64,000 nucleotides of DNA from Aureispira anguillae (GTDB lineage: Bacteria; Bacteroidota; Bacteroidia; Chitinophagales; Saprospiraceae), in the NCBI RefSeq assembly GCF_026000115.1, contig NZ_AP026867.1, positions 2,969,716 through 3,033,715 on the forward strand. The letters run 5' to 3'. This document shows, piece after piece, positions 39,642 to 63,017 of this stretch (position 1 is the stretch's first letter; every line of letters starts with the position of its first letter). The notes under the pieces were generated by a model. It was not told the DNA's origin and did no database searches. It saw nothing but the letters and a program-made list of their open reading frames with translations. A program made the position numbers and the translations under genes.

Positions 39642-41906
39642 CTATTGTTCAAAGGAATCATACAAAGCCATCAAGACCCGTTCATGTGTCATGGGTGTAC
39701 TTAATAATCCTTTTGCATTGGGGTTAAACGCCTTAATGGCATCCGTAATGGCAAAATGCGCCCCAATTCCGTACATTAAAGGTGGTTCTCCAACTGCTTT
39801 TGATTTTAGAATTGCCAAATTAGAATGGTTGGTTTCTAAAAATTTAACATTAATTACTTTAGGAACTGAAAATACATCTGGCACCTTGTAAGTAGATAAA
39901 GCAGAAGACAATAAACGCCCCTCTTGATTGTAGCTCAATTCTTCCATGGTCACCCAACCCATCCCTTGAACCAAACCACCTTCTATTTGTCCTTTATCGA
40001 TCATTTTATTCATGCTCTGCCCAAAATCATGTACAATATCCACTCGATCAAATTCATAAATTCCTCGAATACAATCTACCGTTACTTCTGTAATTGCAGT
40101 ACCGTAAACATGATAAGCAAAAGGATGTCCCTTTTCTGTTGTTTTGTCAAACTTAACTCTAGGCGTTGCATAATGTCCCTTCTCTGACAACTGTATACGA
40201 GCGACAAAGGCATTGGTCACCAATTGTTGCCAAGACCAATCTGTCTTTTGACCATCAATATAGACCCATTCATCGTGAAGGCTGATCGTTTCAAGCTGTT
40301 CTAACTTAAATTGCTGTTGAACAAAAGTTTTTAATCGCAACAAAATAGCAGAACAAGCAATTTGGAGTGCCTTACCATTTAAATCTGCCCCTGCACTTGC
40401 TGCTGTAGGTGATGTATTGGCAACACGAGTGGTATTCGTAGTTTCAATTTTTATTCTTTCAGGTGCTATGGCAAAAGTTTGCGCTACAATCTGAAGCATT
40501 TTAGTATTTACGCCCTGTCCCATTTCCACCGCTCCAGTACTTACTCCAACACTTCCATCTTGATAAACATGAACCAAAGCACGAGCATGATTCATAGGGG
40601 TATTGGTAAAGGAAATACCAAAACAAATTGGCATAACAGCCAGTCCTTTTTTGAGCGTTGTATGTTGAGCATTAAAAGCCGTAACACGGTCACGCATTCC
40701 CTGAAGATCAAAATCAGCGGCTGCTTGTTCCCATGTTTTTAGTGCCTCACAATTTTCTACAATTTGCCCATAGGAAAATTCATCTCCATCTTGTAATAAA
40801 TTTGCCTTTTGAATCAGGGCTCTATCTACTCCTATTTGCTCCGCAGCTAGTGTAATTGCCGCTTCCATAACAAATTTTCCTTGGGGGCCTCCAAAACCTC
40901 GAAAAGCAGTATTGGGAGGCAAATTAGTTCGACAGCTTCTAGCTGTCAACCGAGCATTGGGTACAAAATAAGCATTGGTAGCATGAAACAAGGTGCGCTC
41001 CAATACCGCAGGCGACAAATCTGCTGCAGCTCCTGCATTTTGATAAAAATCGGCTTCATAAGCAATAATTTTAAGTTGCTCGTCCAAACCAATTTTAAAA
41101 TCAGAAGTATAGGGGTGTCGTTTGCCTGTCATGCGCAGATCTTCTTCCCTATCCAATATCAATTTAACGGGCTTTTTGCTCAAAAACGCCCCCAAAGCAG
41201 CCAAAACCGCAAAGGGAGTTGCTTGATCTTCCTTTCCTCCAAATCCACCACCTAAACGCCGAACATCTACTTCTATTTTGTGCATCGCCAAGCCCAAAAC
41301 CCTAGCAATTCCCCGTTGAACCTGTGTTGGTCCTTGCGTAGAAGAAACCACCCTGATGCAATCATTTTCAACAGGAAAAGCATACGCCCCCTGTCCCTCT
41401 ATATATAAATGTTCTTGACCATTGCAATCCGCTCTTCCTTCCACAATATGAGCACATTGCTCCCAAGCCTTATCTACTTCACCAATTTTGAAGGTTCTAA
41501 CAGGGCCAATAAGTTCCCCCTTTTCTGCTGCCTCCCTAGGATCTACAATAACAGGTAATTCCGAGGCTTCCATCACAATTGCCTTTATGGCTTCATGCGC
41601 TATTTTTTTAGAAGTCGCCAAGACCAAAGCAATCGGTTGTCCTCTAAAATGTATGTCCCCGTCAGACAAAGCAGGTTCATCAGGGAAAATTCCTCCAATT
41701 TGATTTTCTCCAGGAATATCCTTATGCGTAATAATATGTTTTACTCCAGCTATTGCTTTAGCTTTGGTTAAATCTAATTTTGTAATTTTTCCATGTGCCA
41801 ATGGAGCATCAAAAATTGCGGCGAACAATGTCCCCCCTAAAATTGGCAAATCATCCACATAAATGGATTCGCCACGAGTATGTGTATAAGAATCTATATT
41901 TTTCAT
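39642..41906 (-). CDS. xdhB: Xanthine dehydrogenase molybdopterin-binding subunit
   Basis: 754 aa. Aldehyde oxidase / xanthine dehydrogenase a/b-hammerhead and Moco-binding motifs (…GGGFGGKE…, …RGFGGPQG…, …AVGEPP…). Confidence 0.85.
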   Translation of the reverse strand: MKNIDSYTHTRGESIYVDDLPILGGTLFAAIFDAPLAHGKITKLDLTKAKAIAGVKHIITHKDIPGENQIGGIFPDEPALSDGDIHFRGQPIALVLATSKKIAHEAIKAIVMEASELPVIVDPREAAEKGELIGPVRTFKIGEVDKAWEQCAHIVEGRADCNGQEHLYIEGQGAYAFPVENDCIRVVSSTQGPTQVQRGIARVLGLAMHKIEVDVRRLGGGFGGKEDQATPFAVLAALGAFLSKKPVKLILDREEDLRMTGKRHPYTSDFKIGLDEQLKIIAYEADFYQNAGAAADLSPAVLERTLFHATNAYFVPNARLTARSCRTNLPPNTAFRGFGGPQGKFVMEAAITLAAEQIGVDRALIQKANLLQDGDEFSYGQIVENCEALKTWEQAAADFDLQGMRDRVTAFNAQHTTLKKGLAVMPICFGISFTNTPMNHARALVHVYQDGSVGVSTGAVEMGQGVNTKMLQIVAQTFAIAPERIKIETTNTTRVANTSPTAASAGADLNGKALQIACSAILLRLKTFVQQQFKLEQLETISLHDEWVYIDGQKTDWSWQQLVTNAFVARIQLSEKGHYATPRVKFDKTTEKGHPFAYHVYGTAITEVTVDCIRGIYEFDRVDIVHDFGQSMNKMIDKGQIEGGLVQGMGWVTMEELSYNQEGRLLSSALSTYKVPDVFSVPKVINVKFLETNHSNLAILKSKAVGEPPLMYGIGAHFAITDAIKAFNPNAKGLLSTPMTHERVLMALYDSFEQ

Positions 41907-42266
41907 TCCATTAATTGGTTGGTTGCTGCGAATAAAATCAGTTGCAGCAAATTAATTCGACATTCAACGAATAGAGTTGTATAAGCGAAAATGCAAGTTT
42001 TTTTTTGAAGATCAAGGAAAAACAGAAACTCATAGCTGTAAGCTATGATGTTGAGCATTTGACGATGAGATTCAGGAAAAAATAAATTGGCAGCCATACC
42101 TTTTCATTATTTATTTCCTTGGGTCATGATATAGTTCATGAACTTCATTTCGCAATAACTTCTAATATACTTACAAATTTGTTGGTAAAAAATAAAAATG
42201 TAAAAAATCCTATTAATACTAGTTGTTCCAATAGGATTTTAGTTCTTAACATTAACGGAGTAATGA

Positions 42267-43661
42267 TTAATCAAATAAGGTAGGAAAAAAGCTTCTATAA
42301 TGTGCGATCATCAATTGACGTAACAATAGACGTTTGTAAGCTACAGAGCCCCTAACATCTGCAATGGGGCTTATTTCTTTTTGGGCAATTTCCAAAGATT
42401 CGTCTAATACTGATTTACTAATTGTTTTTCCAATAAAAAATTGGGCTGTTTTGGCAAGGTATTTTGGTACAGGAGCCACCCCACCAGCAGAAATTCCAGC
42501 TTTGATGACTTCTCCTCTAGTATTGCATTCTATGCGTATAGCAGAATTAACAGAAGCAATATCCAGATAAGTTCGTTTACAAACTTTTTCAAAATTAAAA
42601 TAATGAGTTGATCGTGGCAATTCAAAATTTACTTCTTGCACAAATTCATCTGCTTTTAAATCTAGGGTTTTGTACCCCTTAAAAAACTGCTCTAGCGGCA
42701 ATTCACGTAGGGCACCATTGGCATTCAAAACAATATTAGCATTTAAAGCCAAAAGAAAAACCGCTAAATCACCAATAGGAGACGCATTAACCAAATTGCC
42801 TGCAATTGTCGCCATATTGCGAATTTGAAGGGATGAGATCAAATTAAAAAAATGATCTGTATTAGGGCTTAAGGATTGAATTATCTCAGATTGTTTGAGT
42901 GCTTCGGTAGCGGTTGAAGCGCCAATATGGCAATAGCCGCTCGCCTTCCAGATTCCCTTTAAGTCATTTCTGTTGTAAGCATGAACAATGTCTTCTGAAA
43001 ACATTTTTTGGGGGCGTTGAACATACAAATCTGTTCCTCCTCCTACCCAAATCGCTGACGCAGGAATTGCATCAGGCTTGGTTATAGGACTAGAATCTTT
43101 TAACTTTTTTGCTATTTCTAAAAAATAATTGGGTAAGAACCGATGTTCGACCAACCAACCTAATTTATCTTTATGATTTTTTGCAACCAACTGTTGAACA
43201 ACATATTCTGCGGCTCTTTCGATTGATTTGTATCCCGTACAACGGCAAATGTTGCCAGCAATAGCCAATATTGCTTGATCCTTTGTTATTTTTCCTTCAG
43301 ACAACGCCAGTCCACAAAGAGACATAATAAAGCCTGGTGTACAAAAACCACATTGTGTTCCTCCTTCGTCTGCCATAGCTTGCTGCACCACATTTAGCCC
43401 TTCAATATTGACTCCCTCTATGGTAACAATATGCCGACCTTCTACATTTCCTAAGGGCATAAGACAGGAAGTTACTGATTCATAGATTACTTTATCATTT
43501 TTTAAGGTCCCAATCAAGACAGTGCAAGCACCACAATCCCCTTCTCTACATCCCAGCTTAGTCCCTGTAAGACATTGTTGATACCGTATAAAATCCGCCA
43601 AGATCATCCCTGAGGGCAAATCTGTCTCTATAAGTTCCTGATTCAAAACAAATTTCATCAT
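42267..43661 (-). CDS. xdhA: Xanthine dehydrogenase small subunit (2Fe-2S plus FAD-binding)
   Basis: N-terminal plant-type and second [2Fe-2S] cysteine clusters (CREGDCGACTV, CGFCTPG, CRCTGY). The FAD-binding CO-dehydrogenase flavoprotein domain follows. 464 aa, as in two-subunit bacterial XDH. Confidence 0.85.
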   Translation of the reverse strand: MMKFVLNQELIETDLPSGMILADFIRYQQCLTGTKLGCREGDCGACTVLIGTLKNDKVIYESVTSCLMPLGNVEGRHIVTIEGVNIEGLNVVQQAMADEGGTQCGFCTPGFIMSLCGLALSEGKITKDQAILAIAGNICRCTGYKSIERAAEYVVQQLVAKNHKDKLGWLVEHRFLPNYFLEIAKKLKDSSPITKPDAIPASAIWVGGGTDLYVQRPQKMFSEDIVHAYNRNDLKGIWKASGYCHIGASTATEALKQSEIIQSLSPNTDHFFNLISSLQIRNMATIAGNLVNASPIGDLAVFLLALNANIVLNANGALRELPLEQFFKGYKTLDLKADEFVQEVNFELPRSTHYFNFEKVCKRTYLDIASVNSAIRIECNTRGEVIKAGISAGGVAPVPKYLAKTAQFFIGKTISKSVLDESLEIAQKEISPIADVRGSVAYKRLLLRQLMIAHYRSFFPTLFD

Positions 43662-43889
43662 ACTATATATATATCTTTATTTTTTTTCGTAAAAATTATA
43701 ATAAAAAAAACAATTCTAACGTTTGTTATAATATAGTTAATAAAATCATAAATTGTATTTTTAAAACTATATTATTTGTAATATTCATTTTTTTTTTGTA
43801 GATTAGTAGTATACGATTACCCAAGTATATTAAATAACTAATTAAAGTAAATTCAACTAATAAAATATGTCCCTTTAAGTCTAAAACTC

Positions 43890-44000
43890 ATTTTCTCCAT
43901 TCTCAAGAACTTCTCTATACTGAACTTTTCATCTTGAATCGTCATTAAATATTCCCTCATCTTATAATGAGCATTTGTAATATCTGAAGTGTCCTACCCC
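43890..44000. repeat. Direct repeat copy A (~110 bp) in AT-rich intergenic island
   Basis: Shares ttctccattct.a.aacttctctatactg…aatgag…ttgtaa.atctga.gt with copy B. About 75% identity. Confidence 0.5.
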
Positions 44001-44254
44001 TAGATACTAGTGTATTCTAGCACATGCAACCGAACAATTGTATTTTACATTCTCCATGAATTCTAATGATTCACTAAATTATATTTTTTTACATTATATT
44101 TTTTGTGATATTATTATTTTTTAATTACATTAGCATTATCTTAATATTCTGATCAGATATTGAAATACTACTATAAAACACTAAAAAACTAATTCAATGG
44201 AAAATATTATACGACAAAACTACACATTAGCAAAATTTACTTTTGACTAATTCC

Positions 44255-44352
44255 AACTTTCTCCATTCTTATAACTTCTCTATACTGTATATTTTCGCTG
44301 TACATTACTACTCATTTTCAATGAGTTACTTGTAACATCTGACGTACTTTAC
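44255..44352. repeat. Direct repeat copy B
   Basis: See copy A. Same orientation, ~365 bp downstream. Confidence 0.5.
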
Positions 44353-44808
44353 AAAAATAAAAACCACCTATTTTTTACATTTTACACTTTTGTTACTAAA
44401 AAGTTTGTGTTATAACCTCTAACAAAATATTTTTTGTACAGGTTGTTTTCACTTGGCTTTTATAACATAGGATGATTGTTCCCACAACGATCACTAGGGA
44501 TTGTTATATCAAAAAATAAATCTAATTGGGTTTATTTTCAGATGATGGTCACTAATAGATTATACTTTCTCCTTTGTGTATTTAAGTCACGGTGAGCATA
44601 AGGTTTTCATTTAACTTAAAAGATTTACTCTTAACATATTATAGCATTAATTTTCTGAAAACCAGAAAATTAAAACCGTCCCGTAATGCCTATAGGTAAG
44701 TATCTATGGCTGTATAATAAAACCAAGAGTTCTTTAAAAGTAAATAAAAATTGGATAATCACACAATCTTATTTTTTTACAACCCCCTTTTTTAAAGAAA
44801 ATTGCACC

Positions 44809-45930
44809 ATGAAAGAAAGAAATCAAAAAAGTCCCAGTTCCCAAGGAAACTCAAAAGCAAACCATTTGGAAGTATCTAAAAATTTGCAGCATTATCCTAA
44901 GGTAACATTCCCCATTAGTCCTTTTCATTCCCAACAGTTAACGATTTCAACATTAAAGTTAGATCATCATCCAGCAATTAATGATATTTTATCGGCAACC
45001 TCTAGGTTGTCAAAAGAATTTGGAATTCAGTTAGAGCAATCGTATGCCTCACATACTAGTATGACGGCATTCTTGTATCCCAAATCTGGTAAATACAGAA
45101 TAGTAATTGTAAATATTTTATACGACTTACTTTACTATATTGATGATCTATTCGGAGAAGACATAAGTACTGCCAATAATGAAGAAAAGCCTTCATTATC
45201 TGAAATAATGAACATCTGGAAAACAGGAAAAATTAATCCAGAGTATTATAACAACTTGACCAATCAAAAGATCAAGAATGTTTGTGATGCGATGCAATGG
45301 GTCAGAACTAAATTATTCCAAAGTTGTGAACCTGCCTTTTTCAAGAAAATATCTAAGTTGTTGTTTGAACATCTAAGAGATCAATTGAAACCGAATGCAT
45401 ACCAAAATATTGAAGAATATATTCACTTGAGAAGAAACTTTTCAGGCATGTATGTTGCAATCTATCTTATAGAATATTGCTACAGCAGGTATTTGACGCC
45501 TGAAATTTTAGAAAAAGTACCTAGTTTACAGAAAGCTATTGATTTGTGTGCTGATATTGGAGGATTATCTAATGATATTTTCTCTTATCCTAAAGAAAGT
45601 CACAGCAAATTTAACTTAGTCAACAGTTTTAGCGTTTTGAATGATTCCATTTCATTGGGGCAAGCTATCCAAAAATCAATTGATTTGGTTAACAATTGCC
45701 ACGCTGATTTTAATGCTGCAATCAAACAAATACATACTGAAATAGTTGGGTTAGAAATAGATCAGAAAGCAACTGTCTTGCATTTTGCTGACGGATTAAA
45801 ATCTATTTTATCCGCAACTTACCACTGGCAGTTGGTTACTCAACGCTATAGACATGACAACCACATATTAGAAGATCTTAAGTATCAGTCTGATTATACC
45901 TTTGATATTGATATCAAAGATGCTAGCTAA
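44809..45930 (+). CDS. Class I terpene synthase (terpene cyclase)
   Basis: Asp-rich motif YYIDDLFGED (DDxxD/E-type). NSE/DTE triad NDIFSYPKE (NDxxSxxxE) lies ~146 aa downstream. An RY pair (VTQRYRHD) lies ~90 aa after NSE. Size ~373 aa from MKERNQ. All of these are hallmarks of bacterial class I terpene cyclases. Confidence 0.7.
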   Translation: MKERNQKSPSSQGNSKANHLEVSKNLQHYPKVTFPISPFHSQQLTISTLKLDHHPAINDILSATSRLSKEFGIQLEQSYASHTSMTAFLYPKSGKYRIVIVNILYDLLYYIDDLFGEDISTANNEEKPSLSEIMNIWKTGKINPEYYNNLTNQKIKNVCDAMQWVRTKLFQSCEPAFFKKISKLLFEHLRDQLKPNAYQNIEEYIHLRRNFSGMYVAIYLIEYCYSRYLTPEILEKVPSLQKAIDLCADIGGLSNDIFSYPKESHSKFNLVNSFSVLNDSISLGQAIQKSIDLVNNCHADFNAAIKQIHTEIVGLEIDQKATVLHFADGLKSILSATYHWQLVTQRYRHDNHILEDLKYQSDYTFDIDIKDAS

Positions 45931-45993
45931 TAATAGTCATCGATAACAAAACTAGAACGGCTCTATCCTAAAAAGATAGAGCCGTTTTTTTCT

Positions 45994-46407
45994 TTAGTGT
46001 TCAGCCTTTGCTATTTGTTCTAGCAACCAAGCGACTGCATCTTCCCTTTCTGTAAAAATTTTAACAGGTGCCTGTCCTTTTACTTTATTGGACGAAGCAG
46101 ATTTTCCCGTTAACTTCAGATAAAGATTTCCTACTACCCTTGAACCAAATGAGGTAGTCAATAAAGCACTAGCTACTTCCCCTATTTCAGATTTTTCATA
46201 ACATTCTAAGACTTCTTTACTGATATAGTTGCTAGGCATGTTACTCAACATAGCTCTAGGTTTCCCATCTACAGCTTTTTTTAACATTGCTATATTTTCC
46301 TGAGCTATCTCTACCGTATCTGCTTCCTTCCAATCTTTATTATTTTCTAGTTCTACAATACCATTTGAGTTAACAGTAATTGTTAGCGCCCTTGTTTTGA
46401 ATTGCAT
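45994..46407 (-). CDS. Small conserved protein, paralog 1 (possible STAS-like fold)
   Basis: 137 aa. About 75% identical to the neighbouring 46573-46983 product. The C-terminal ...KGQAPVKIFTEREDAVAWL pattern is reminiscent of STAS/SpoIIAA-like domains (weak). Confidence 0.45.
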   Translation of the reverse strand: MQFKTRALTITVNSNGIVELENNKDWKEADTVEIAQENIAMLKKAVDGKPRAMLSNMPSNYISKEVLECYEKSEIGEVASALLTTSFGSRVVGNLYLKLTGKSASSNKVKGQAPVKIFTEREDAVAWLLEQIAKAEH

Positions 46408-46572
46408 TATGTGTTTTTAATATTAAAAAGTGTGTATAAAAAAAGAAATGCTTATTTTTGGGAACCCAAGTTAATTAAAATTATATATTTTTTAATGGTG
46501 GATTCTTTCTTTCTTTTTAATATTATTTACACTTATTTAAAAATAAAAAATACATAAAATCGTTTCACCTGC

Positions 46573-46983
46573 TTATCTACTACTTGCAATCTGCTCCAAA
46601 AGCCACTCAACAGCATCCTCCTTCTTCGTAAAAATTTTAACAGGTGCCTGTCCTTTTACCTCACTAGATTTGGCTGACTTTCCTGTTAATTTTAAATAAA
46701 CATTTCCTACCACTTTGGAACCAAAGGAAGTAGTCAATAGAGCACTAGCGACTTCACCAATCTCAGCTTTATTATAGCATTCTAGCACATCCTTGCTCAT
46801 ATAAGTGCTAGGCATGTAACTCAACATAGCTCTAGTTTTTCCTGCTACAGCTTTCTTGATCATAGCGACATTCTCCTGAGCGATCTCTACCGTGTCTGGT
46901 TGTTTCCACTCTGGGTTTGTCACCAGTTCTATAATATCATCTGGTCTAACAATAATCGTCAAAGCTCTCGTTTTGTATTGCAT
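46573..46983 (-). CDS. Small conserved protein, paralog 2
   Basis: 136 aa, tandem duplicate of the 45994-46407 gene. Confidence 0.45.
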   Translation of the reverse strand: MQYKTRALTIIVRPDDIIELVTNPEWKQPDTVEIAQENVAMIKKAVAGKTRAMLSYMPSTYMSKDVLECYNKAEIGEVASALLTTSFGSKVVGNVYLKLTGKSAKSSEVKGQAPVKIFTKKEDAVEWLLEQIASSR

Positions 46984-47183
46984 AATATCAAATTTTAATA
47001 AAAAAAAACAATCAATTAGTTAAAATAATTAATATTGTTTAATTATTAATGTAATAAACAAAATAAAAGCCTACTTATTACAAGAAAAAATCAAATGAGT
47101 AAATCTTTTCATTCACAAAACAAAGCATTTTGATATTAATGTAAAATAAAGTATCTTCACGTATTACCCACAAAAGAAGAATT

Positions 47184-47903
47184 ATGAAAAAACAAAGTAT
47201 CAATAGAGAGTACAATTTTCCAGATGCTAGTTTGTATTCTCAATGCAAAGAGCGTATTCAATACATCAAACGGGACCAAAAAGAATTTGAAAGCTATGCC
47301 TATACCAATGGTAAAATTGAAAATTTCGAATTGCTTTGTAAAAAGTTCTCTGATCAACCCGATGATGATGAACTGATTGGCAATCAAATGGAGGCAACCA
47401 ATAAAAAAAATGAAGCTAAAGAAAAGCTAAAAACAGCAATCCGCTCTGTCATGACACGAGTCGCCAGCAAGTACAATACTCGTTCTGGGCATTATCGAAA
47501 ATTTGGTACGGTTAAAATGAATGACATGAGTGACCCTAAGTTATTATTGTGTGGTCGTCGAGTCGTACGAGTTTCTAATAAATTGCTAGACTTTTTAGCC
47601 GAAACTGGCCTTCGCCAATCCCACATTGATATCATACAACAAGCTGCCTCTGCTTTTGAAAATGCCATTCATATACAACAAGACAAGATTTCAGATCGAG
47701 ATATTTTTGTAGAAAAGCGTATTGAATTGGGCAATGAGTTATATCGTGAATTAGTATTGGTTTGTAACATAGGAAAAGATATTTGGGCAGAAAACAACAA
47801 AGCCAAATACGAGAACTATACGATCTACGAAAGCAATAACGACCAGAAAAAAGCACGTAAACAACGCCTTAAAGAAGAGGAAATGACCAAAAAGAAAAAT
47901 TAA
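47184..47903 (+). CDS. Hypothetical Lys/Glu-rich protein
   Basis: 239-aa ORF, no signal peptide, charged C-terminus. No recognised motifs. Confidence 0.35.
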   Translation: MKKQSINREYNFPDASLYSQCKERIQYIKRDQKEFESYAYTNGKIENFELLCKKFSDQPDDDELIGNQMEATNKKNEAKEKLKTAIRSVMTRVASKYNTRSGHYRKFGTVKMNDMSDPKLLLCGRRVVRVSNKLLDFLAETGLRQSHIDIIQQAASAFENAIHIQQDKISDRDIFVEKRIELGNELYRELVLVCNIGKDIWAENNKAKYENYTIYESNNDQKKARKQRLKEEEMTKKKN

Positions 47904-47927
47904 TTTTTTATTCTCGGTCAACAAACT

Positions 47928-47972
47928 GAAGCATAGAAAACAGCTCGCTATTAGCTGTATTTTCTATGCTTC
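47928..47972. terminator. Bidirectional rho-independent terminator hairpin
   Basis: 17-bp stem gaagcatagaaaacagc / gctgtattttctatgcttc, flanked by T-rich runs on both strands. Lies between convergent genes (47184-47903 on + and hisIE on -). Confidence 0.55.
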
Positions 47973-47981
47973 AATTAACTT

Positions 47982-48578
47982 TTATTGGTGCCGCTGTTCT
48001 AATACCGCCAGCACCTCATCCAAACTATAATCTTTAGCTGCCAAAAGAACCAAATAGTGATACAGCAAATCGGCAGCTTCTCCCAAAAACAATTTCTTAT
48101 TATCGTCTTTGGCTTCAATGATTAGCTCAACTGCTTCCTCTCCAACTTTCTGAGCCACCTTATTTATTCCCTTTTCCAACAATTGCGCCGTATAAGATTC
48201 GGAGTGCGCATTATTTTTTCGGTCATTAATAATGGTTGCTAAATAATTTAAATCAAATTTAGAATTGTTTGCTGTACCAAAGCAAGTTCCTGTCCCCTTA
48301 TGGCAAGTATTTCCTTTGGGGTTTACCCTTATTAACAACGCATCATGATCACAATCCTTTTGCCATTTGACCAATTCTAAATAATTGCCAGAAGTTTCGC
48401 CTTTTACCCACAAACGCTGCTTAGATCGGCTATAAAATGTAACCAAGCCAGTCTCTAAGGTTTGTGCAAGCGCCTCTTCGTTCATATACCCCAACATTAA
48501 CACATTTTGGGTTCTTTCATCTTGTATAATAGCAGGAACTAACCCTCCCATTTTTTTATAATCTAGTGCTATACTCAT
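47982..48578 (-). CDS. hisIE: Bifunctional phosphoribosyl-AMP cyclohydrolase / phosphoribosyl-ATP pyrophosphatase
   Basis: HisI motifs (…[18 protein letters not shown]…) followed by the HisE helical domain. Last gene of the his operon. Confidence 0.9.
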
Positions 48579-49330
48579 AATCTTACTAATATATTATTCT
48601 TATCTAAATAGTTTTTTAAAGCTGGGATAGCAATTTCTTTGAAATGAAAAACGCTTGCCGCCAAAGCTGCGTCGGCTTGTCCCAATTCAAAAACATCCTT
48701 AAAATGAGATTTTTTTCCTGCTCCTCCAGATGCAATGATTGGGATTGACAATTGCTTGGACATTAGGGCTAATATTGAATTCGCAAAACCATCCTTGGTA
48801 CCATCATGGTCCATTGATGTAAACAAAATCTCTCCAGCCCCTAGTTCCGCTGCCTTCTTTGCCCATTCTAGCAATCTCCATTCACTTTTTATACGCCCAC
48901 CACTTGTATAAACCATCCACTCACCATTTTCCAACTTTGCATCTATCGCCACCACTACACACTGACTTCCAAATTTACTAGCCAGTTCTCTTATCAATTG
49001 AGGTTGGCGTACCGCAGCTGAATTGATGGCAATTTTATCGGCTCCTGCCCTTAAGAGCCTAGCGACATCTTCTACCGTAGAAATTCCCCCTCCTACTGTA
49101 AAAGGAATTGAAAGGCATCGAGCAATTTTTTCAACCAGCTCAATCCATGTTTTTCGCTTTTCATGACTAGCAGTAATATCCAAAAACACCAGTTCGTCTG
49201 CCCCCATCTTAGTATATAATTGAGCCAATTCAATAGGGTCTCCCGCATCTTTGAGCCCAACAAAATTCACCCCCTTTACTGTTCTCCCCTCTTTTATATC
49301 CAAGCAAGGAATAATTCGTTTGGTTAACAT
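48575..49330 (-). CDS. hisF: Imidazole glycerol phosphate synthase cyclase subunit
   Basis: [20 protein letters not shown]… (beta/alpha)8 HisF signature. Confidence 0.9.
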
Positions 49331-50052
49331 GATACAATGAATTTTTCAACTTCTTTTAATTTAATTTTTCCTTCATAGAATGCTTTGCCAATAACAACTC
49401 CATGACAACCTATTTCATCCAATTTTTTTATCTCATCAATAGAAGATACCCCACCACTAGCCATCAACTTTAAGTTGGGGAATTCGTTCAAAATAGATTT
49501 ATAAAGTGCTATAGAAGCTCCTTGTAAGAGGCCATCTTTGGCAATATCGGTGCAAATACAAGATTCAATCCCTCGCTCTAAATAATTCTCCAAGAAAGGA
49601 AACAATTCAATTTCACTGACCTCTTTCCAACCGTTAACAGCAATTTGCAAACCTTTGACATCTGCTCCTAGTATAATTTTAGAACTGCCATACGTTGCGA
49701 TCCATTCATAAACTAAGGGGGCATTGGCTACAGCGATACTCCCAGCCGTAACTTGGTTTGCCCCTGAGTTAAATGCTATTTCAAGATCTTTAATCGATTT
49801 TACTCCTCCTCCAAAATCAATCCTTAAATTGGTTCCTTGCGCAATGCTTTCCAACACGTCATAATTAACAATATACTTAGCTTTGGCTCCATCCAAATCT
49901 ACCAAATGCAACTGCTCTAAGCCAGCATCTTCAAACGATTGAGCCACCTCTAGCGGTTTGCTACTATAAATTTTCTTCTGTGTATAATTTCCCTGCGTTA
50001 GACGAACGCATTGCCCGTCTATAATGTCAATTGCTGGTATTATCTTGATCAT
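49324..50052 (-). CDS. hisA: ProFAR isomerase
   Basis: [21 protein letters not shown]… HisA signature. Overlaps hisF by 7 nt. Confidence 0.9.
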
Positions 50053-50063
50053 TTTTTACTGAT

Positions 50064-50651
50064 TTATAAGGCTAAGAAGTTTTTTAAAATTTGCATTCCA
50101 ATCTGATTCGATTTTTCAGGGTGAAATTGTGTTGCATAAAAGTTATCCTTTTGTAATGCTGCACTAAAATTCCCTCCATAAGAACAAGTAGCAATGGTAT
50201 AAGCTCCCAATTCTACATAATAACTATGAACAAAGTAAGCGTAACTATCCATTGGTATCCCTGCTAATAAAGGTACCGAATTGCAGGTAAGCGTATTCCA
50301 TCCTATATGGGGAACCTTTAAATTGGGATGGGGAATGAATCGCTTGACCCTTGCAGGAAAAATATTCAATCCCTCTACATTGCCTTCTTCTGAAAAAGCG
50401 CACAGCAGTTGCATTCCTAAACAAATTCCCAATACGGGTTGTACAAGATTTTTTATGGCAAGATCCAAACCTTCTTTTTTTAGATAAGTCATGGCAGAGC
50501 GAGCCTCGCCCACTCCTGGAAAAATTACCTTATCGGCAGCAGCCAATAACGTTGGGTCTTTGGTTAACACTGCTGATACGCCTAGTCGCTCTAGCGCAAA
50601 CTGCACTGAACGGGTGTTCCCTGCCTTGTAATCTATAATTGCTATTTTCAT
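50064..50651 (-). CDS. hisH: Imidazole glycerol phosphate synthase glutamine amidotransferase subunit
   Basis: Class I GATase with catalytic Cys in GICLGMQLL and an HPEKS motif. Confidence 0.9.
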   Translation of the reverse strand: MKIAIIDYKAGNTRSVQFALERLGVSAVLTKDPTLLAAADKVIFPGVGEARSAMTYLKKEGLDLAIKNLVQPVLGICLGMQLLCAFSEEGNVEGLNIFPARVKRFIPHPNLKVPHIGWNTLTCNSVPLLAGIPMDSYAYFVHSYYVELGAYTIATCSYGGNFSAALQKDNFYATQFHPEKSNQIGMQILKNFLAL

Positions 50652-58809: not shown

Positions 58810-60312
58810 TTATTTTAATTTATTGAAGGCATCATTGTATAACTGTATCAACCAATTATAATACAATATTTCTTCATCAAGATCGTCCTTCCATTTACTT
58901 AAAGCAATCTTTTTTTCTTTTTTCCAATTTGTACTTATCAAAATTTTATAACAGGCACCTAGTTCTTTGATAAACTTTAAGTTAGCCTTCTCGGTAGAAA
59001 CTTCCTGAATTAATTTCCCCCTTATGTGTGCCTTATAAGCCTGAAGTATCAATTCTATTTCTATATTTTTGCCTTTAATCTTCAGATTATCTTGAAAGTT
59101 TTGGTTGATAAAATTTTCAAAAATTGCTTTGGTTTTTAATACATGAACTTGAGTTGCGTAATAAGCTCTTAAATTTAATTCTGGTTTTTTATTCTCTACT
59201 TTTTCATACTCAAAAAGTTTCAGCCATTTCTTTTGCAAATACAAATGAGCCATTTCACACAAATTTGCAATATAATATTGTTCTTTTTCTAAGGCATATT
59301 GATAACTATTTTCCTTAATTCGATTCAAAAAATCAGGATCTCTAAAATTAAGACAAGAAGCAATTGCATTGGCAAAATCTTCAAATCGTATTGCTCCATC
59401 TACCTGAATTAACCAATTGCTATCAAAGGCCATTTTATATAGATTGTATATGTATTCCCTCCAATTGGTTCCTCGCTCCACAGCAAGATAATTAATAAGA
59501 AAAATAACCATAAATTCTCGATCCTTATGCTCTATTTCAATCTTATTGGATTGTATAACGGCGTATAAATCGGCTAATAGCTTGGTGCAAATATCGCTAT
59601 CTCGCCCACTAGAACGAGTATATTGAACCACTAGATACAATCTTTCATACAGCTCTAAGGTTAGATTCTTATGCTCATTTATAATTGGCAATTGAAAATT
59701 AATCATTGGAAAAGCTTCTCCCAAAGAATAAAATCGACTGATTTTTTCTAAAGTGATGCGCAATTTATGAATTGAATAAAAAATATCTAACTGTACATCT
59801 GCCATCATTAAGGCCGTACTGGCCTCTTTTTCTTTTTTGGTTGGAAATTTAGAGGAAAAATAGAGTTTTTGATGTCCCCATGCGCTGTAATAATAGTCCG
59901 TTGATGTTTTAGGAGCTTTTAATTGTCGAACTAATTTCCCTAGAACAACTATATTCAATTCATTAATATCCAAGCTATTCTGAAGCAACTTATTTTTAAC
60001 ATAATAGCCCATAATTTGAGCTCGTATCTCCCATTTTAAATTTGTCTTTAGCTCCAATTCCCAATAACAAAAAGCATAGAACAAATCAATCAACTGATCG
60101 CTAGCATAATCCACTTTTTTGATGGTCTCTACCTTCATTTTTTTGAAAACCTCGTTCCGATCAATCTTTTGGTCGTTGTTCTTCCAGACTTCGAATACAG
60201 CAACATAAAATTTTTGAATGGGTGCTGTCGGTATAAAATTCTCAAATTTGGAGGCTTTTTTCAAAAGTGACAAAACGCTTAAGATTATTTCTATTTGCTC
60301 TAGCTTCTTCAT
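58810..60312 (-). CDS. Hypothetical protein (500 aa, Lys-rich, helical)
   Basis: Long ORF in an AT-rich segment. No signal peptide and no recognised motifs. Confidence 0.35.
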   Translation of the reverse strand: MKKLEQIEIILSVLSLLKKASKFENFIPTAPIQKFYVAVFEVWKNNDQKIDRNEVFKKMKVETIKKVDYASDQLIDLFYAFCYWELELKTNLKWEIRAQIMGYYVKNKLLQNSLDINELNIVVLGKLVRQLKAPKTSTDYYYSAWGHQKLYFSSKFPTKKEKEASTALMMADVQLDIFYSIHKLRITLEKISRFYSLGEAFPMINFQLPIINEHKNLTLELYERLYLVVQYTRSSGRDSDICTKLLADLYAVIQSNKIEIEHKDREFMVIFLINYLAVERGTNWREYIYNLYKMAFDSNWLIQVDGAIRFEDFANAIASCLNFRDPDFLNRIKENSYQYALEKEQYYIANLCEMAHLYLQKKWLKLFEYEKVENKKPELNLRAYYATQVHVLKTKAIFENFINQNFQDNLKIKGKNIEIELILQAYKAHIRGKLIQEVSTEKANLKFIKELGACYKILISTNWKKEKKIALSKWKDDLDEEILYYNWLIQLYNDAFNKLK

Positions 60313-60886
60313 GCTATTGTTTCATTAGTCGTTAAAATTTCCAAATTTCTCATACCATTTTCAGCTTATCTATTTGGAAAATATAAAATTTTCATCTTTG
60401 CCAATCACAGCACAATCGTTTATTATTACACTATAAATAAACAAGTTACAATAAATCAAACATAAGTATAATTAAAACAATTTTTAAATTTCCATTTTCT
60501 TTTTTTCAAACAAACTAAAAGGCACCCTATTCTATCACCAATTTAAAATTCATAAATATGAAACGATCATCATTTATTGAATTCTGGGACTGTGTATATT
60601 TGTTAATAGCTGCTCTAATCCTCGTTGTATTGGTCTGCGCCTAGTTTTGAATTCAAGTAAAGAAAGAGATTGTCAAGTACTTAAGTTGTACTTGACATTT
60701 TTTTATTAAAAAATTCATTTTCATTTGGAATAACTAACACAAAAAAGCTAAAAAAATAGCCATTTAAGCTTTTTACTTCTAATTCTCATTTGGAATTTTG
60801 ATTTTTCTTGTTTTGGGTTGGTTTTAAAGGTAGGGTATATTTGTGTTAGATAAGTCAAATACAAACGAATATAAATCCTTTATACA

Positions 60887-62338
60887 ATGCGGTTATTATT
60901 ATTATTCATTGCTTCTATACTCTGTTCTAATTTAAATGCACAAAAATGCAAAGGAATAAAAAAAGCGAAAGTAGTTCTTAGAAGGCAAATCATAGCTTTT
61001 AGTAATGGTTCTCTCCCCCAAAAGAAAAAAATTAGTGATCACTCTTGCTTTAACAAAAAAAGTAACAAAAAATTTAAAGCTTTCTATAAAATATTAAAAG
61101 CCTATCATTTATGCAACAGCTCAGATTCTAATTTGGAAACAATAACCTCTCTGTATAAAGAAGCTAATAAAATTATGGATAATATTCCTCCTCCTTTAAT
61201 AAACTTCAATACAAGACCAAGAATTGGCTTTCTCAAAGCCAAAGAATCAGTTGAAGAATGTATTAGCAACAAGTTTAAAGAAAGCTCAAAAGATGAAACT
61301 TCTCAACAAATTAAAGAATTCGGGAAAGGTTTAAAACCTTTATTACCTGAAGGCTGCCCATTACCAGATATTATCAGCAAACCAAGCAATGAAAATCTAG
61401 ATCAGGTTTTTTATCTAGATGTATATATGTGTGAAGACAACCTTACTTTTGGAGACCGCCTTCACTTAGGACAGATCGGACTTCCTTTAATGTATGATAC
61501 TTTTGCTGTTTTTATGAATAATGAGATTATAAATGACTACATAAGTAGACGATCATCCTCTCGAACTGAAGCTTTATCTAATATACACATCACTATTGAA
61601 GGGCATACAGATAAAGTAATAGCTCAACAGTTGAATTATTCGCCTAAATCTTTCAGCGTTCCCAAAGGAATAGAATACACTTATGAAGAATATAATCGTA
61701 CAATTAAAATTAAAGAGCAAAAAAAAACTCTCAAACAAGACTTAGTAGATAAATTATATGGTAATGAGCAATTGGGATTAGTAAGAGCTCATGTTGCAAA
61801 AAAAATAATAGCAGCTAGAAATATTACATCTAATCCAATTATCCTAAAATCAATCCATCATACCAAACAGAAAGGTAAGGAATTTCGAAAAGCTAAAATA
61901 ATTATAGAGATTGATAGCTTTTACATTAATACACAGTTAGATATTATTTATAAACTAGCAGATAAAATTGAGGACTCAGGAAATATAGTGGACATCAGGT
62001 TTCGCAATTCAAATAAGCTCCCTAATACTCTCTCCTTCATAAAAGATACAATTACCATTGATAAAAAAAACTATACCATTGAATTCGACTTCAAACATAG
62101 CTCTCCAGGAAAATTGTTGTCAACAATTATTCTAAAGCAAAATAAACGCAAAGTTTACAATTACACAATAAAATTAACAAACCAAGATGGCAAACTTCTA
62201 CGTAACTGTCAAGCCTCTAGAGGCATGGATTGCCAGTTAAATCTTTCACGAAAAGACATCAAAGATTGCTTGGTAAAATACACTATATATGTCAATGGAA
62301 CAAAGGAAGACAGTAGTATATATTTATGTAATCAATAA
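60887..62338 (+). CDS. Secreted protein with C-proximal OmpA-like peptidoglycan-binding motif
   Basis: Signal peptide MRLLLLFIASILCSNLNAQ. The segment …ITIEGHTDKV…NEQLGLVRAHVAKKII matches the core of the OmpA/MotB C-terminal domain (GHTD…N..LS..RA..V). Confidence 0.5.
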   Translation: MRLLLLFIASILCSNLNAQKCKGIKKAKVVLRRQIIAFSNGSLPQKKKISDHSCFNKKSNKKFKAFYKILKAYHLCNSSDSNLETITSLYKEANKIMDNIPPPLINFNTRPRIGFLKAKESVEECISNKFKESSKDETSQQIKEFGKGLKPLLPEGCPLPDIISKPSNENLDQVFYLDVYMCEDNLTFGDRLHLGQIGLPLMYDTFAVFMNNEIINDYISRRSSSRTEALSNIHITIEGHTDKVIAQQLNYSPKSFSVPKGIEYTYEEYNRTIKIKEQKKTLKQDLVDKLYGNEQLGLVRAHVAKKIIAARNITSNPIILKSIHHTKQKGKEFRKAKIIIEIDSFYINTQLDIIYKLADKIEDSGNIVDIRFRNSNKLPNTLSFIKDTITIDKKNYTIEFDFKHSSPGKLLSTIILKQNKRKVYNYTIKLTNQDGKLLRNCQASRGMDCQLNLSRKDIKDCLVKYTIYVNGTKEDSSIYLCNQ

Positions 62339-62348
62339 TGAATAAATA

Positions 62349-63017
62349 ATGAAAAAAACATTTATAATCTTTCTCTTTCCTACAACTCTAGCAATCATAT
62401 GCTTGCTGGTTTATTTTTTAGGAATAAAAATTATTCCAACTAATACTGTTTCATTAGGATATAGCACAGATGGACAAAAGCTATTATTTACAGATTACAA
62501 ACAATTTAAAGACATTTACCGATTTGCTATTTTTATCCAAAAAGTAGAGGACTCTTTTTATTCTCAAGATACTACTCCTTGTTACAATTCACCTCATTGT
62601 GTCAAACTAAAACAAAGAAATAATGCCATTCTGCTCAAACTTAAAAATAGATTTGATATTAGCCAATCCATGACAAAAGAAGAAATCATTAGCGAATTTT
62701 ATGAATTCTCTTTTTGGGGACTAAAGAACCTAACTGTATGGGAAGTTAGTTTTTTAGGAGCTTCACTTTGGCTATTCTTTGCTTTTATATTGACAGGATA
62801 TTTACACTGGCAGATCAATACGAATTATTTTTTATACTTCATGAGTTGGATAGGATTAGTGTTCACTTGTTTTATCCTCATTTTCACCTATAAAGCTCGA
62901 CCATTCTTAACCCCTTATTCTACCAATTTTATAACCCAAGGTATTATAATCGGCATAACTATTCCCCTATTAGTAGAAACCATTGCATATTCTTATTCTA
63001 AGTTAACGATCAATTAA
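62349..63017 (+). CDS. Hypothetical integral membrane protein
   Basis: 222 aa with about 4 TM helices. Starts 10 nt after the OmpA-like gene, consistent with an operon. Confidence 0.4.
   Translation: MKKTFIIFLFPTTLAIICLLVYFLGIKIIPTNTVSLGYSTDGQKLLFTDYKQFKDIYRFAIFIQKVEDSFYSQDTTPCYNSPHCVKLKQRNNAILLKLKNRFDISQSMTKEEIISEFYEFSFWGLKNLTVWEVSFLGASLWLFFAFILTGYLHWQINTNYFLYFMSWIGLVFTCFILIFTYKARPFLTPYSTNFITQGIIIGITIPLLVETIAYSYSKLTIN

Follow-up and report, generated by a model that had tools for sequence, protein, structure and literature searches.

A genus-conserved gene for a class I terpene synthase in Aureispira anguillae and its conserved, candidate cis-regulatory leader

Organization of the locus

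A gene for a class I terpene synthase (TS) is located in a stretch of 64,000 nucleotides from Aureispira anguillae (to be referred to as the window; Table 1). It lies between xdh genes (42267–43661 and 39642–41906) and the hisIE/F/A/H genes (47982–50651), all on the minus strand, in agreement with an earlier sequence-only reading, which had placed it between xdh purine genes and the his operon. That reading also described an AT-rich, ORF-free leader of about 1.1 kb, two tandemly duplicated proteins of about 136 residues and a Lys-rich hypothetical protein. All of these are present. The leader has a GC content of 0.25 and no ORF longer than 39 residues, and the two small proteins, with a STAS/SpoIIAA fold, are 75% identical. 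No prenyltransferase, P450 or methyltransferase is found within about 5 kb of TS, again as first reported. An in-frame ATG at 44686, which would give a longer form of TS, is not kept in relatives.

Table 1. Features of the TS locus, in window positions.
Feature	Position	Strand	Basis
Non-coding leader, 1147 nt, between divergent xdhS and TS	43662..44808	+	ORF scan, GC, homology to relatives' leaders
Leader unit, copy A	43737..44026	+	Unit-profile nhmmer (E 8e-39), alignments, kept in L013
Most conserved block of unit A, TTTG-N20-TAGATTAG	43775..43806	+	Pattern and alignment
Equivalent of H1 in unit A (CTCAT/ATGAG)	43956-43971
Leader unit, copy B	44063..44384	+	Unit-profile nhmmer (E 2e-53)
Equivalent block of unit B, TTTG-N20-TACATTAG	44102..44133	+	Pattern and alignment
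Hairpin H1, unit B (ACTCAT/ATGAGT)	44310..44326	+	RNAalifold helix
Hairpin H3 (TGATTGTT/AACGATCA)	44473..44493	+	Inverted repeat in alignment
Hairpin H5, 11 bp (TTAATTTTCTG/CAGAAAATTAA), ~135 nt before ATG	44647..44673	+	RNAalifold helix
Block proximal to the start codon (..CTTATTT..ACCCC.TTTTTAA.GAAAATTGyACC ATG)	44760..44808	+	Leader alignments
Class I TS gene, 373 aa, single alpha domain	44809..45930	+	Profiles, motifs, model, NCBI identity
Terminator-like bidirectional hairpin, 14-bp stem, 6 G-C pairs	45954..45988	.	Between convergent TS and first STAS-like gene
STAS/SpoIIAA-fold protein, 137 aa, DUF7793-like, paralog a	45994..46407	-
STAS/SpoIIAA-fold protein, 136 aa, DUF7793-like, paralog b	46573..46983	-
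Lys-rich protein, 239 aa	47184..47903	+	Judged outside TS unit

Sequence motifs and fold of the terpene synthase

The ORF at 44809–45930 does encode a class I terpene synthase, with a class I alpha fold and canonical motifs. Profile searches bear out the first assignment as a class I terpene cyclase, with matches to PF19086 (Terpene_syn_C_2) at 76.9 bits (cutoff 23.7) and to PF03936 at 32.1 bits (cutoff 26.3). The Asp-rich motif (I111-D112-D113-L-F-G-E117-D118), the NSE triad (N255-D256-I-F-S259-Y-P-K-E263) and the RY pair (R346-Y347) were located by alignment and are correctly placed, as originally noticed, although the triad is 143 residues after D112 rather than about 146. R208 is the sensor arginine, accompanied by G213. 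Residues D112, D118, R208, G213, N255, D256, S259 and R346 are invariant across 24 TS homologs. In NCBI, an entry with 100% identity to the protein is already named 'terpene synthase family protein [Aureispira anguillae]', and the description of the locus as previously undescribed does not hold for this gene.

In the AF2 model of TS (pLDDT 82.3, pTM 0.82), Asp112 and Asp113 are located at the C-terminal end of helix 95–115. Asn255 is inside helix 238–258, with Ser259 and Glu263 just past its end, and the RY pair directly follows helix 317–344. There is a helix break at Gly213, and the N-terminal extension of about 35–40 residues is disordered. The top Foldseek matches are class I sesquiterpene synthases, with TM scores of 0.71–0.81 (normalized by target). 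The model thus folds like solved enzymes of this class, and the placement of the motifs is canonical.

A detailed comparison is made here with microbial class I sesquiterpene synthases (PF19086/IPR034686), including BcBOT2 presilphiperfolan-8-beta-ol synthase (8h6q), the 10-epi-cubebol synthase ScCubS (7zrn), T-muurolol synthase (9hqd), pentalenene synthase and epi-isozizaene synthase. As in these enzymes, the roughly 330 structured residues of TS form one alpha-helical domain, with the Asp-rich motif ending helix D, the NSE triad on helix H, the sensor arginine 47 residues before the triad and the RY pair close to the C-terminus. All three motifs fall within the profile alignment to BcBOT2 (E 3.7e-22). 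There are also differences, however. The identity to solved class I enzymes is at most about 21% in fold alignments, the Asp-rich motif is DDLFGED, with DDxxxE/D spacing rather than a strict DDxxD, and the disordered N-terminal extension sets TS apart.

Probable substrate and product

With a trinuclear Mg2+ cluster, TS would ionize a prenyl diphosphate from housekeeping metabolism and cyclize the cation so formed. FPP is the most likely substrate, and a sesquiterpene the product, since most of the best matches by sequence and by fold are FPP cyclases and a dedicated prenyltransferase is absent from the neighborhood. This assignment is only a lean, as 125 of the 334 bacterial terpene synthases tested in a screen (37%) made diterpenes (PMC12009305). 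The diterpene makers include Bacteroidota enzymes, from Chitinophaga, Olivibacter, Chryseobacterium and Belliella, and sequence similarity is a poor predictor of product among bacterial terpene synthases (PMC12009305). Moreover, the diterpene synthases 9m25 and 6oh8 are among the Foldseek matches of TS. A diterpene synthase, or an enzyme for another chain length, is nonetheless the somewhat unlikely choice. The best sequence and profile matches are all FPP cyclases (BcBOT2, Copu9, 10-epi-cubebol, Cop4 and T-muurolol synthases), and a GGPP synthase is not adjacent to TS. The product-naming NCBIfam models that match TS are sesquiterpene synthases as well, though all far below their cutoffs; the best-scoring NCBIfam model names no product.

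The suggestion that terpene cyclases are comparatively rare in Bacteroidota is overstated, as this group has the second-largest share (8.6%) of 5802 bacterial type I terpene synthases (PMC12009305).

Conservation of the locus in the genus

The order of xdh, leader, TS, STAS-like genes, Lys-rich gene and his operon is repeated across Aureispira genomes and MAGs. It is the same in the closest relative (locus L013) and in L029, L030 and L031, while L016, L018 and L022 have this order plus an inserted unit of a second synthase gene (TS2), a P450 gene and a STAS gene. Three other loci (L003, L006 and L010) share only the side from TS to his. Altogether, the order is found, in whole or in part, in at least 10 other Aureispira-group loci, with TS identities of 53–83%, and the close TS clade (identity of 53% or more) contains only Aureispira names or metagenome sequences. 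In six sister loci (L001, L002, L016, L018, L020 and L022), a TS paralog with 59–65% identity is directly followed by a P450 (PF00067, E 1.7e-85). This is the arrangement of the TS and cytochrome P450 two-gene cassettes known from bacteria. In comparison, the window has the TS1-type gene only, with neither a P450 nor a second TS.

The region at 43.6–47.9 kb was originally described as an AT-rich accessory island with a small terpenoid locus, and would on this view be strain-specific and horizontally acquired. The leader is indeed AT-rich, the overall GC content of TS is low (0.328, z −1.7 versus the window), and repeats are present. In addition, TS homologs with 31–35% identity are found in other Bacteroidota orders (for example in Tenacibaculum and Cytophagales), which leaves room for an ancient transfer into the genus. 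However, a marked AT-richness is confined to the leader, and the GC3 of TS (0.302) is typical of the window (z −0.14), a native codon usage. Integrase, transposase and tRNA genes are all absent at the segment borders, the repeats are an internal duplication of the conserved leader and not island ends, and the gene order is genus-wide. A strain-specific island is thus largely refuted already, and we consider it very improbable. TS is native and has been maintained throughout the genus.

The STAS-like and Lys-rich neighbors

The two STAS-like proteins score just below the Pfam cutoff for DUF7793 (25.2 and 25.8 versus 26). Their genes are found only in Aureispira-group sequences, the same taxonomic range as TS, and follow both TS paralogs in 1–5 copies. 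The array is a co-inherited companion of TS. Compared to STAS/SpoIIAA-like anti-sigma-factor antagonists and DUF3478 (PF11964), the proteins show only 7–18% identity, there is no partner kinase, phosphatase or sigma factor nearby, and the genes form tandem arrays of 1–5 paralogs beside TS.

This association raises the possibility that TS and the array are one functional system, with the STAS-fold proteins as terpene-binding or carrier proteins, or as partner-switching regulators of TS expression. We regard this as doubtful. The array is convergent to TS, with the strong, terminator-like bidirectional hairpin at the end of TS in between, and the genes are therefore not expected to be co-transcribed. 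Two loci (L004 and L032) have TS without a STAS gene, STAS genes are also absent beside more distant TS homologs, and the lack of a nearby kinase or phosphatase is against partner switching. The adjacency within one genus may instead be inherited synteny, possibly from a segmental duplication of TS and STAS genes.

The Lys-rich protein belongs to no Pfam or NCBIfam family. It has 923 homologs, many with 59–90% identity, from sources that include Aureispira, other Saprospiraceae and unclassified Bacteroidota. In the two Saprospiraceae examined (L033 and L034), these homologs are in unrelated contexts without TS, STAS-like or his genes, and the Lys-rich gene is judged to be unrelated to TS. Of the small terpenoid locus proposed earlier, the tandem genes therefore stay associated with TS while the Lys-rich gene does not; like the xdh and his genes, it is a mere neighbor.

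Conservation and duplication of the leader

A conserved leader of about 0.85 kb is located upstream of TS in most relatives examined, and the leader in A. anguillae is equivalent to it plus an internal duplication of about 330–365 nt. The gap before TS is 0.8–1.3 kb in most Aureispira-group loci, with a maximum of about 2.4 kb in L003. The TS1 and TS2 leaders are homologous to each other, as are those of different species, and the leader accompanies TS regardless of the gene on its other side. Between the window and L013, positions 43700–44400 are 70–92% identical in most 50-nt windows, compared to 36–48% for four-fold sites, which are saturated, and 40–58% for other intergenic regions. Conservation above the saturated synonymous sites shows that the leader is under purifying selection.

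Two direct repeats of about 110 bp had been noticed here; they are present, but longer, aligning with 60% identity over 305 nt (E 2e-9). Their core (43870–43990 versus 44236–44345) lies within a 192-column alignment with a mean column identity of 75%. With a profile built from the repeated unit, nhmmer matches are obtained at 43737–44023 (E 8e-39) and 44064–44380 (E 2e-53). The repeats reflect a tandem duplication, in the A. anguillae/L013 lineage, of a unit of about 300 nt that is found in 12 other leaders, always on the TS strand and ending about 345–480 nt before the TS start. Copy B, ending about 430 nt before the ATG, is the positional equivalent of the single unit in relatives. All unit matches lie ahead of TS genes, on the same strand as the gene. 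Across 0.43 Mb, a covariance model (R1) gives 57–122 bits only upstream of TS genes and 22–26 bits elsewhere; it did not reach more distant clades.

In relatives, a second TS, a P450 and STAS genes separate xdhS from TS1, and a deletion in the A. anguillae lineage could have left remnants. The leader might then be functionless debris, of a decayed gene or MITE-like elements, with repeats that are chance or relics. This is highly improbable, as neither tblastn with TS2 paralogs nor tblastx with the leader finds a relic in 43662–44808, every small leader ORF is broken by indels between the window and L013, and the unit geometry is fixed in all loci. The conservation above synonymous sites and other intergenic DNA also argues against debris.

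Possible mode of action of the leader

The leader probably acts as a cis-regulatory element of TS. Most likely, it would do so as a long 5′ UTR with several hairpins, beginning at the invariant TTTG-N20-TAnATTAG block. Across 11 unit copies, TTTG, ATAT and TA.ATT.G do not vary, and one copy lacks the A of TTAG. The pattern TTTG N19-21 TANATTAG has three matches in the window (0.41 expected), two of which are the blocks of units A and B. These blocks are candidate −33/−7 promoters of the Bacteroidota type, a call that is uncalibrated since the window shows no enrichment of the canonical Bacteroidota pattern (7 matches versus 4 expected).

Hairpin H1 has changes on both sides in three of four pairs (GCTCC/GGAGC, ACTCC/GGAGT and GTTCC/GGAAC). 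In H5, 90.7% of cells are paired, and four of nine pairs are changed on both sides. The inverted repeat of H3, as read from the alignment, is in the same place in 8 of 9 aligned leaders, and the hairpin is present in the MFE folds of the window and L029. For a hairpin structure drawn by eye from the same sequences that were used for the covariation analysis, 84% of cells are paired, versus 35–51% with the partners slid. There are 10 pairs with double changes, compared to 3.8 in shuffles, and none of 500 shuffles reaches 10. The plus strand folds better than shuffled sequences (z −3.9 for the window and −2.2 for L029; minus strand, z −1.6). The global RNAalifold structure is slight, with energies of −0.4 and −3.4 kcal/mol and one helix each. 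G-U cells barely exceed A-C cells (16 versus 10), and hence the hairpin cells do not settle the strand, or RNA versus DNA.

A serious, though less favored, alternative is that the leader acts as DNA, as a long divergent promoter/operator with palindromic transcription-factor sites. The blocks are conserved mainly in sequence, the RNAalifold consensus energy is almost nil, the hairpins, as A+T-rich inverted repeats, resemble the sites bound by dimeric regulators, G-U is not clearly favored over A-C, and a divergent minus-strand gene always borders the region. On the other hand, the stems show compensatory changes and the H5 loop varies in length (5 versus 12–13 nt), as expected of base pairing more than of half-sites at a constant spacing. 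The better folding of the plus strand, and the constant strand and distance of the unit relative to TS while the upstream gene differs, also favor structured RNA.

A structured RNA leader would resemble the long structured 5′ leaders, riboswitches and attenuators of bacterial biosynthetic genes, being conserved, non-coding, on the strand of the gene and at a near-fixed distance from it, with compensatory substitutions in hairpins and better-than-shuffled folding. It differs from these in its GC content of about 25–30%, its length of about 0.85 kb and its weak consensus folding energy. It has no match to any Rfam family, even at E values up to 5.

Overall, we estimate a probability of roughly 0.7 that this locus is a monocistronic class I TS gene, native to A. 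anguillae and conserved in its genus, with the conserved leader as its cis-regulatory element and the STAS array co-inherited. The synthase itself is already annotated, and the less ordinary, new point of the locus is the conserved, partly duplicated non-coding leader.

Terpene synthase: motifs, predicted structure and product

The open reading frame (ORF) for the class I terpene synthase (TS) is present as described in the sequence-only reading. Its 373-residue product is 100% identical to the NCBI entry "terpene synthase family protein [Aureispira anguillae]", on a 7.58-Mb contig. In the HMM search that had been proposed, the protein scores above the curated cutoffs of both PF19086 Terpene_syn_C_2 (76.9 bits, cutoff 23.7) and PF03936 Terpene_synth_C (32.1 bits, cutoff 26.3). 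Pfam matches, motifs and predicted fold all agree with a class I terpene synthase. The call is correct, but the protein is already so named in the databases, and the TS is an uncharacterised member of a known enzyme family.

An alignment of 24 homologues shows no variation at residues D112, D118, R208, G213, N255, D256, S259 and R346. The Asp-rich motif IDDLFGED (D112-D113-L-F-G-E117-D118) follows the DDxx(x)D/E pattern and is aligned with DDQFDE of BcBOT2, with D113 and E117 conserved in at least 90% of the same alignment. The DDLFGED spacing is a known variant, not the strict DDxxD. The NSE triad, N255-D256-I-F-S259-Y-P-K-E263, fits (N/D)Dxx(S/T)xxxE and is aligned with NDVLSYRKD of BcBOT2. 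This triad (NDIFSYPKE) had been recognized earlier, but its distance from the Asp-rich motif is 143 residues, not the reported 146 or so. The RY pair is found as well, the invariant R346 being followed by Y347. The putative diphosphate-sensor R208 lies 47 residues ahead of N255 (about 46 expected).

The AlphaFold model of the TS (pLDDT 82.3, pTM 0.82) is all-helical, with residues 1-34 disordered. The Asp-rich motif caps the C-terminal end of helix 95-115, N255 is inside helix 238-258, and S259 and E263 come right after that helix. The RY pair follows helix 317-344, and G213 is at the break between helices 201-211 and 214-225. A Foldseek search of the PDB gives 249 matches at E ≤1e-3. The best 50 are all class I terpene synthases, with TM scores (normalised by target) of 0.71-0.81, and they include the geosmin synthase N-domain, BcBOT2, and the epi-cubenol, T-muurolol, pentalenene and epi-isozizaene synthases. 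The profile of the TS family can also be aligned with BcBOT2 (E 3.7e-22), and the alignment takes in the Asp-rich motif, the NSE triad and the RY pair. The placement of the motifs, as inferred from helix positions in the model and alignment to solved synthases, appears canonical for class I enzymes. The TS clade bears only Aureispira names, and its identity to solved enzymes does not exceed about 21%.

None of the product-specific NCBIfam equivalogs (isoafricanol, epi-cubebol, epi-isozizaene, eudesmol, selinadiene and pentalenene synthases) is above its cutoff for the TS. The best of the product-named models, isoafricanol synthase, gives 46.6 bits against a cutoff of 500, and the others are lower. 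All of these models are far under cutoff and so assign no product. FPP, a housekeeping metabolite, is the substrate of most of the best-matching cyclases, and the evidence therefore leans weakly toward a sesquiterpene product. The lean is weak because 37% of 334 bacterial terpene synthases in one screen were diterpene synthases, several of them from Bacteroidota (PMC12009305). Bacteroidota account for 8.6% of bacterial type I terpene synthases (PMC12009305), and the description of these enzymes as comparatively rare in the phylum was therefore overstated. A literature search found no paper tying Aureispira to terpene synthases, and terpenes are unmentioned in the ixotrophy preprint.

Gene order and composition of the locus

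The xdh genes are located upstream and hisIE-F-A-H downstream of the TS region, all on the reverse strand, as had been noted. The neighbours are also as described, two paralogous genes (137 and 136 aa, reverse strand) followed by a 239-aa Lys-rich ORF on the forward strand. The coordinates are given in the table.

Features of the terpene synthase locus and of related loci
Feature	Coordinates	Strand	Remarks
Leader	43662-44808		non-coding gap upstream of TS
Leader unit A	43737-44023	+	tandem copy in the window and in L013, the closest relative; profile of the unit
Leader unit B	44064-44380	+	tandem copy in the window and in L013; profile of the unit
TTTG-N20-TAnATTAG block	43775-43806; 44102-44133	+	most invariant in the leader; candidate promoter
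Hairpin H1		+	ACTCAT/ATGAGT in the window; GCTCC/GGAGC, ACTCC/GGAGT and GTTCC/GGAAC in other leaders
Hairpin H3	44473-44493	+	inverted repeat recurring across leaders
Hairpin H5	44647-44673	+	TTAATTTTCTG/CAGAAAATTAA in the window; TTAATTATC/GATAATTAA and TAGTTATC/GATAACTA in other leaders
TS ORF	44809-45930	+	373 aa
Bidirectional hairpin	45954-45988		strong; between the convergent TS and STAS-like genes
STAS-like genes	45994-46407; 46573-46983	-	137 and 136 aa
Lys-rich gene	47184-47903	+	239 aa
TS2-P450 unit	L001 5592-8621; L016 2774-5357; L022 8001-10718; L020 1150-3767		absent from the window

The region had been interpreted as an accessory island. Islands are recognized by variable presence among relatives, foreign composition, and mobility genes or tRNAs at the borders; here, synteny is kept among relatives, third-position GC is typical, and the borders have no mobility genes or tRNA. 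In a scan with one genome per species, TS relatives 53-74% identical are found in 8 Aureispira or Saprospiraceae assemblies. Searches with the window proteins (tblastn) show the order TS, STAS-like genes, Lys-rich gene and hisIE-F-A-H in most relatives, with xdh upstream in several. In L013, where the TS is 83% identical, gene order is exactly as in the window and the gap upstream of the TS is 1171 nt. Three further loci (L029, L030 and L031) also have this order, with gaps of 833-858 nt, and the arrangement is thus not strain-specific. The third-position GC of the TS (0.302) equals the mean of 49 window genes (z -0.14), as in a native gene, and the first two codon positions account for its lower overall GC. 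At 41-50.5 kb there is no ORF of the size of an integrase or transposase. The Rfam 15 scan of the whole window, which would include tRNAs, gives no family at gathering score. AT-richness and repeats are insufficient grounds for calling a genomic island, and the interpretation as an island and a gene cluster is mostly wrong.

Three genes at 58810-63017 are the most AT-rich coding genes of the window (GC 0.30-0.31, z -2.2 to -2.6), a composition more island-like than that of the TS region. One or two Peptidase_S74/Por_Secre_tail genes are located beside xdhS, on the xdhL side, in two relatives (L013 2456-4192 and L022 2220-5504), separating xdhL from xdhS in L013; at the corresponding place (41907-42266) the window shows no more than 360 bp, in which there is a 64-aa ORF. 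A second gap of about 1.3 kb without an ORF of at least 150 aa is found at 18960-20270.

Second terpene synthase and other related loci

Many Aureispira, including the complete genome CP133671 (L022), have two tandem TS units. The order is xdhS, leader, the second paralogue (TS2), cytochrome P450 and three STAS-like genes, followed by a leader, TS1 (the counterpart of the window TS), one to five STAS-like genes, the Lys-rich gene and his. TS2 is 59-65% identical to the window TS, with the P450 (PF00067, E 1.7e-85) directly next to it and then two or three STAS-like genes. A. anguillae and L013 have the TS1 unit only, and there is no second TS anywhere in the window.

A metagenome scan for further TS loci gave only 6 loci, mostly short. 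Four proteins (P0064, P0081, P0109 and P0040) stand out in the search with the TS profile. The TS profile is matched in four or five separate stretches in proteins of 1617, 1647 and 1542 aa, which suggests giant proteins with tandem TS-like domains, and a 684-aa protein has its TS domain confined to the C-terminal half. In L032 (7001-10401), a TS 56% identical faces a convergent gene of the fatty-acid hydroxylase family (PF04116), and a gene with an Ntox23 toxin domain is nearby; STAS-like and Lys-rich genes are missing, but about 0.9 kb of sequence upstream of the TS is again free of ORFs. A Saprospiraceae MAG (L009, 10001-12150) has two TS paralogues in tandem, which are 33% identical to the query. 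The TS homologue of Tenacibaculum xiamenense (L007, 8506-12028; 35%) is located between a double SnoaL-like protein and an AraC-family regulator.

Conservation and duplication of the leader

The gap ahead of the TS is 1147 nt long, with 25% GC and no ORF above 39 aa, in agreement with the earlier description. Its two direct repeats are real, but they are longer than the 110 bp or so first assigned, reaching about 300 nt (60% over 305 nt, E 2e-9), with the repeat core within a 192-column alignment of 75% mean column identity. The leader of L013 carries the duplication too (62% over 375 nt). Other relatives have a single unit, which ends about 345-480 nt ahead of the start codon; because only the window and L013 have two tandem copies, the direct repeats are a lineage-specific duplication of a conserved cis-element. 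The TS2 leader of L001 (4658-5213) contains about three tandem copies of a repeat of about 190 nt (87% identity over 370 nt), and leaders have therefore been duplicated internally more than once in the genus.

In most loci of the Aureispira group, the sequence ahead of the TS is free of ORFs for about 0.8-1.3 kb (about 2.4 kb in L003). Depending on the locus, the next gene upstream is xdhS, a STAS gene, a transpeptidase or an M75 peptidase. The leaders are homologous between species, and TS1 leaders are homologous to TS2 leaders. When the window is compared with L013, four-fold degenerate sites show saturation (36-48% identity) and other intergenic regions are at 40-58%, while most 50-nt windows in 43700-44400 are at 70-92%, with a peak of 90-92% at 44080-44154. 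Identity falls to 36-66% at 44430-44760, and conservation returns in the final 50 nt ahead of the ATG. The distal unit (about 300 nt), searched as a profile, has matches only upstream of TS genes, on the TS strand every time. Judging from these sequence comparisons, the leader is conserved non-coding DNA under purifying selection and is probably a functional cis-element of the TS. The unit HMM and R1, a covariance model of the leader, did not reach the leaders of L003, L004, L006, L010, L032 and L022 TS1; by blastn, several of the leaders not reached are homologous to each other or to other TS leaders.

Two other origins of the conserved sequence were rejected. Small conserved ORFs are excluded, as all six frames are stopped in the unit copies of four species and indels shift the frames. 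A relic of TS2 or P450 is also excluded, as neither tblastn with four TS2-type paralogues nor comparison of the leader with relatives by tblastx and blastn found anything. In 6 of 12 leaders, the loop of hairpin H6 contains a two-codon mini-ORF, ATG TCC TAA (L029 4424-4432, columns 122-130 of leader alignment A9), with variants ACG TCC CAA and ATG TCC TAG in two further leaders. The window counterpart of its ATG is at 44686 and runs in frame into the TS ORF.

Candidate promoter and possible RNA structure

The TTTG-N20-TAnATTAG block resembles the Bacteroidota -33/-7 promoter consensus, TTTG/TAnnTTTG, and 3 matches to this type of pattern are found in the window where 0.41 would be expected. 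The consensus itself, as TTTG-N18-22-TAnnTTTG, is not enriched in the window (7 matches against 4.0 expected), and for this reason the block is kept as a candidate promoter by inference from sequence. A sigma-70 scan of the window is at background (21 against 22).

Several short inverted repeats occupy the same positions across the leaders, with compensatory changes. In the three proximal hairpins, 84% of cells are paired, compared to 35-51% with the partners slid, and double-sided pair changes number 10 against 3.8 in shuffles (0 of 500 shuffles reach the observed value), the helices having been drawn from the same sequences used for both counts. R1, built on the proximal-hairpin region, gives scores of 57-122 bits in TS leaders and nowhere else in 0.43 Mb of sequence. 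Folding of the plus strand is stronger than that of shuffles, with z -3.9 for the window and -2.2 for L029; the minus strand gives z -1.6. The pairing, the compensatory changes and the stronger folding of the plus strand argue against the main rival explanation, in which the leader is an operator region acting as DNA. The evidence against a compact structured RNA includes the reuse of the sequences for drawing and counting helices. In addition, G-U pairs (16) are not clearly favoured over A-C (10) in the hairpin cells, and RNAalifold gives one weak helix each for the distal unit and the proximal 225 nt, with almost no consensus energy. Because of this last result, the claim is limited to local hairpins. 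The preferred reading of the leader is a long 5′ UTR with local structure. At E ≤5, the sole Rfam match in 43400-48100 is a chance-level sRNA match at 45871-46001.

STAS-like and Lys-rich neighbours

The 136- and 137-aa proteins have the alpha/beta fold of STAS (STAS/SpoIIAA-like) domains. They score 25.2 and 25.8 bits against Pfam DUF7793 (PF25056; gathering cutoff 26.0), and several of their homologues bear a precomputed PF25056 match. Every source-given name among their 57 homologues is Aureispira, the same range as that of the TS, and arrays of one to five copies follow both TS paralogues. Two TS loci (L004 and L032) are without them. These genes are not co-transcribed with the TS, as they are convergent with it and separated from it by the bidirectional hairpin. 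A functional link between the TS and the STAS-like genes is possible. Partner-switching modules combine a Ser that can be phosphorylated, at the start of helix 2, with a cognate kinase/anti-sigma factor and a phosphatase; S55, a possible counterpart of SpoIIAA Ser58, is invariant in the STAS-like proteins, and there is no kinase or phosphatase gene within about 5 kb.

The Lys-rich protein has 923 homologues, many of them 59-90% identical, with source names from Aureispira, other Saprospiraceae and unclassified Bacteroidota. It matches no family in Pfam or NCBIfam. Homologues 62-64% identical sit in other contexts, without TS, STAS or his genes. On this distribution and these contexts it was rejected as a cluster member; it is a conserved gene that merely happens to adjoin the TS region. 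Of the neighbours in the proposed small terpenoid locus, the STAS-like genes, which share the range of the TS and follow its paralogues, are inherited along with it, but the Lys-rich gene is not. Compared with L001, the Lys-rich protein is 88% identical, XdhL 83% and TS 74%.

Implications for control of the terpene synthase

The AT-rich, repeat-bearing leader is a conserved, partly duplicated and previously undescribed element with a probable regulatory role. We know of no description of conserved cis-regulatory elements for bacterial terpene synthase genes. A more specific proposal, to which we give a probability of roughly one in five, is that the leader is a new, genus-specific structured 5′ leader RNA that forms, with STAS-fold partners, an undescribed control module of the TS. 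This RNA, about 0.85 kb long, would begin at the invariant TTTG-N20-TAnATTAG block and bear hairpins H1-H6. It would gate TS expression, either by attenuation or by sensing of a ligand or protein. The tandem STAS-fold genes found with most TS copies would be regulatory or terpene-binding partners.

The regulatory feature of this locus is a moderately interesting addition to a known enzyme family. The wider point is a long non-coding leader, under purifying selection, on a bacterial terpene synthase gene, which would give a concrete handle on the control of "silent" terpene synthase genes. Species that have the TS2-P450 unit can be compared, as natural pairs, with species that lack it. Aureispira are marine gliding, ixotrophic predators and the TS clade is uncharacterised, so the product could be a new or ecologically relevant volatile. 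If the proposal is true, the leader and its STAS-fold partners would act as a module, not described before, that controls how predatory, filamentous Bacteroidota produce volatile terpenes.
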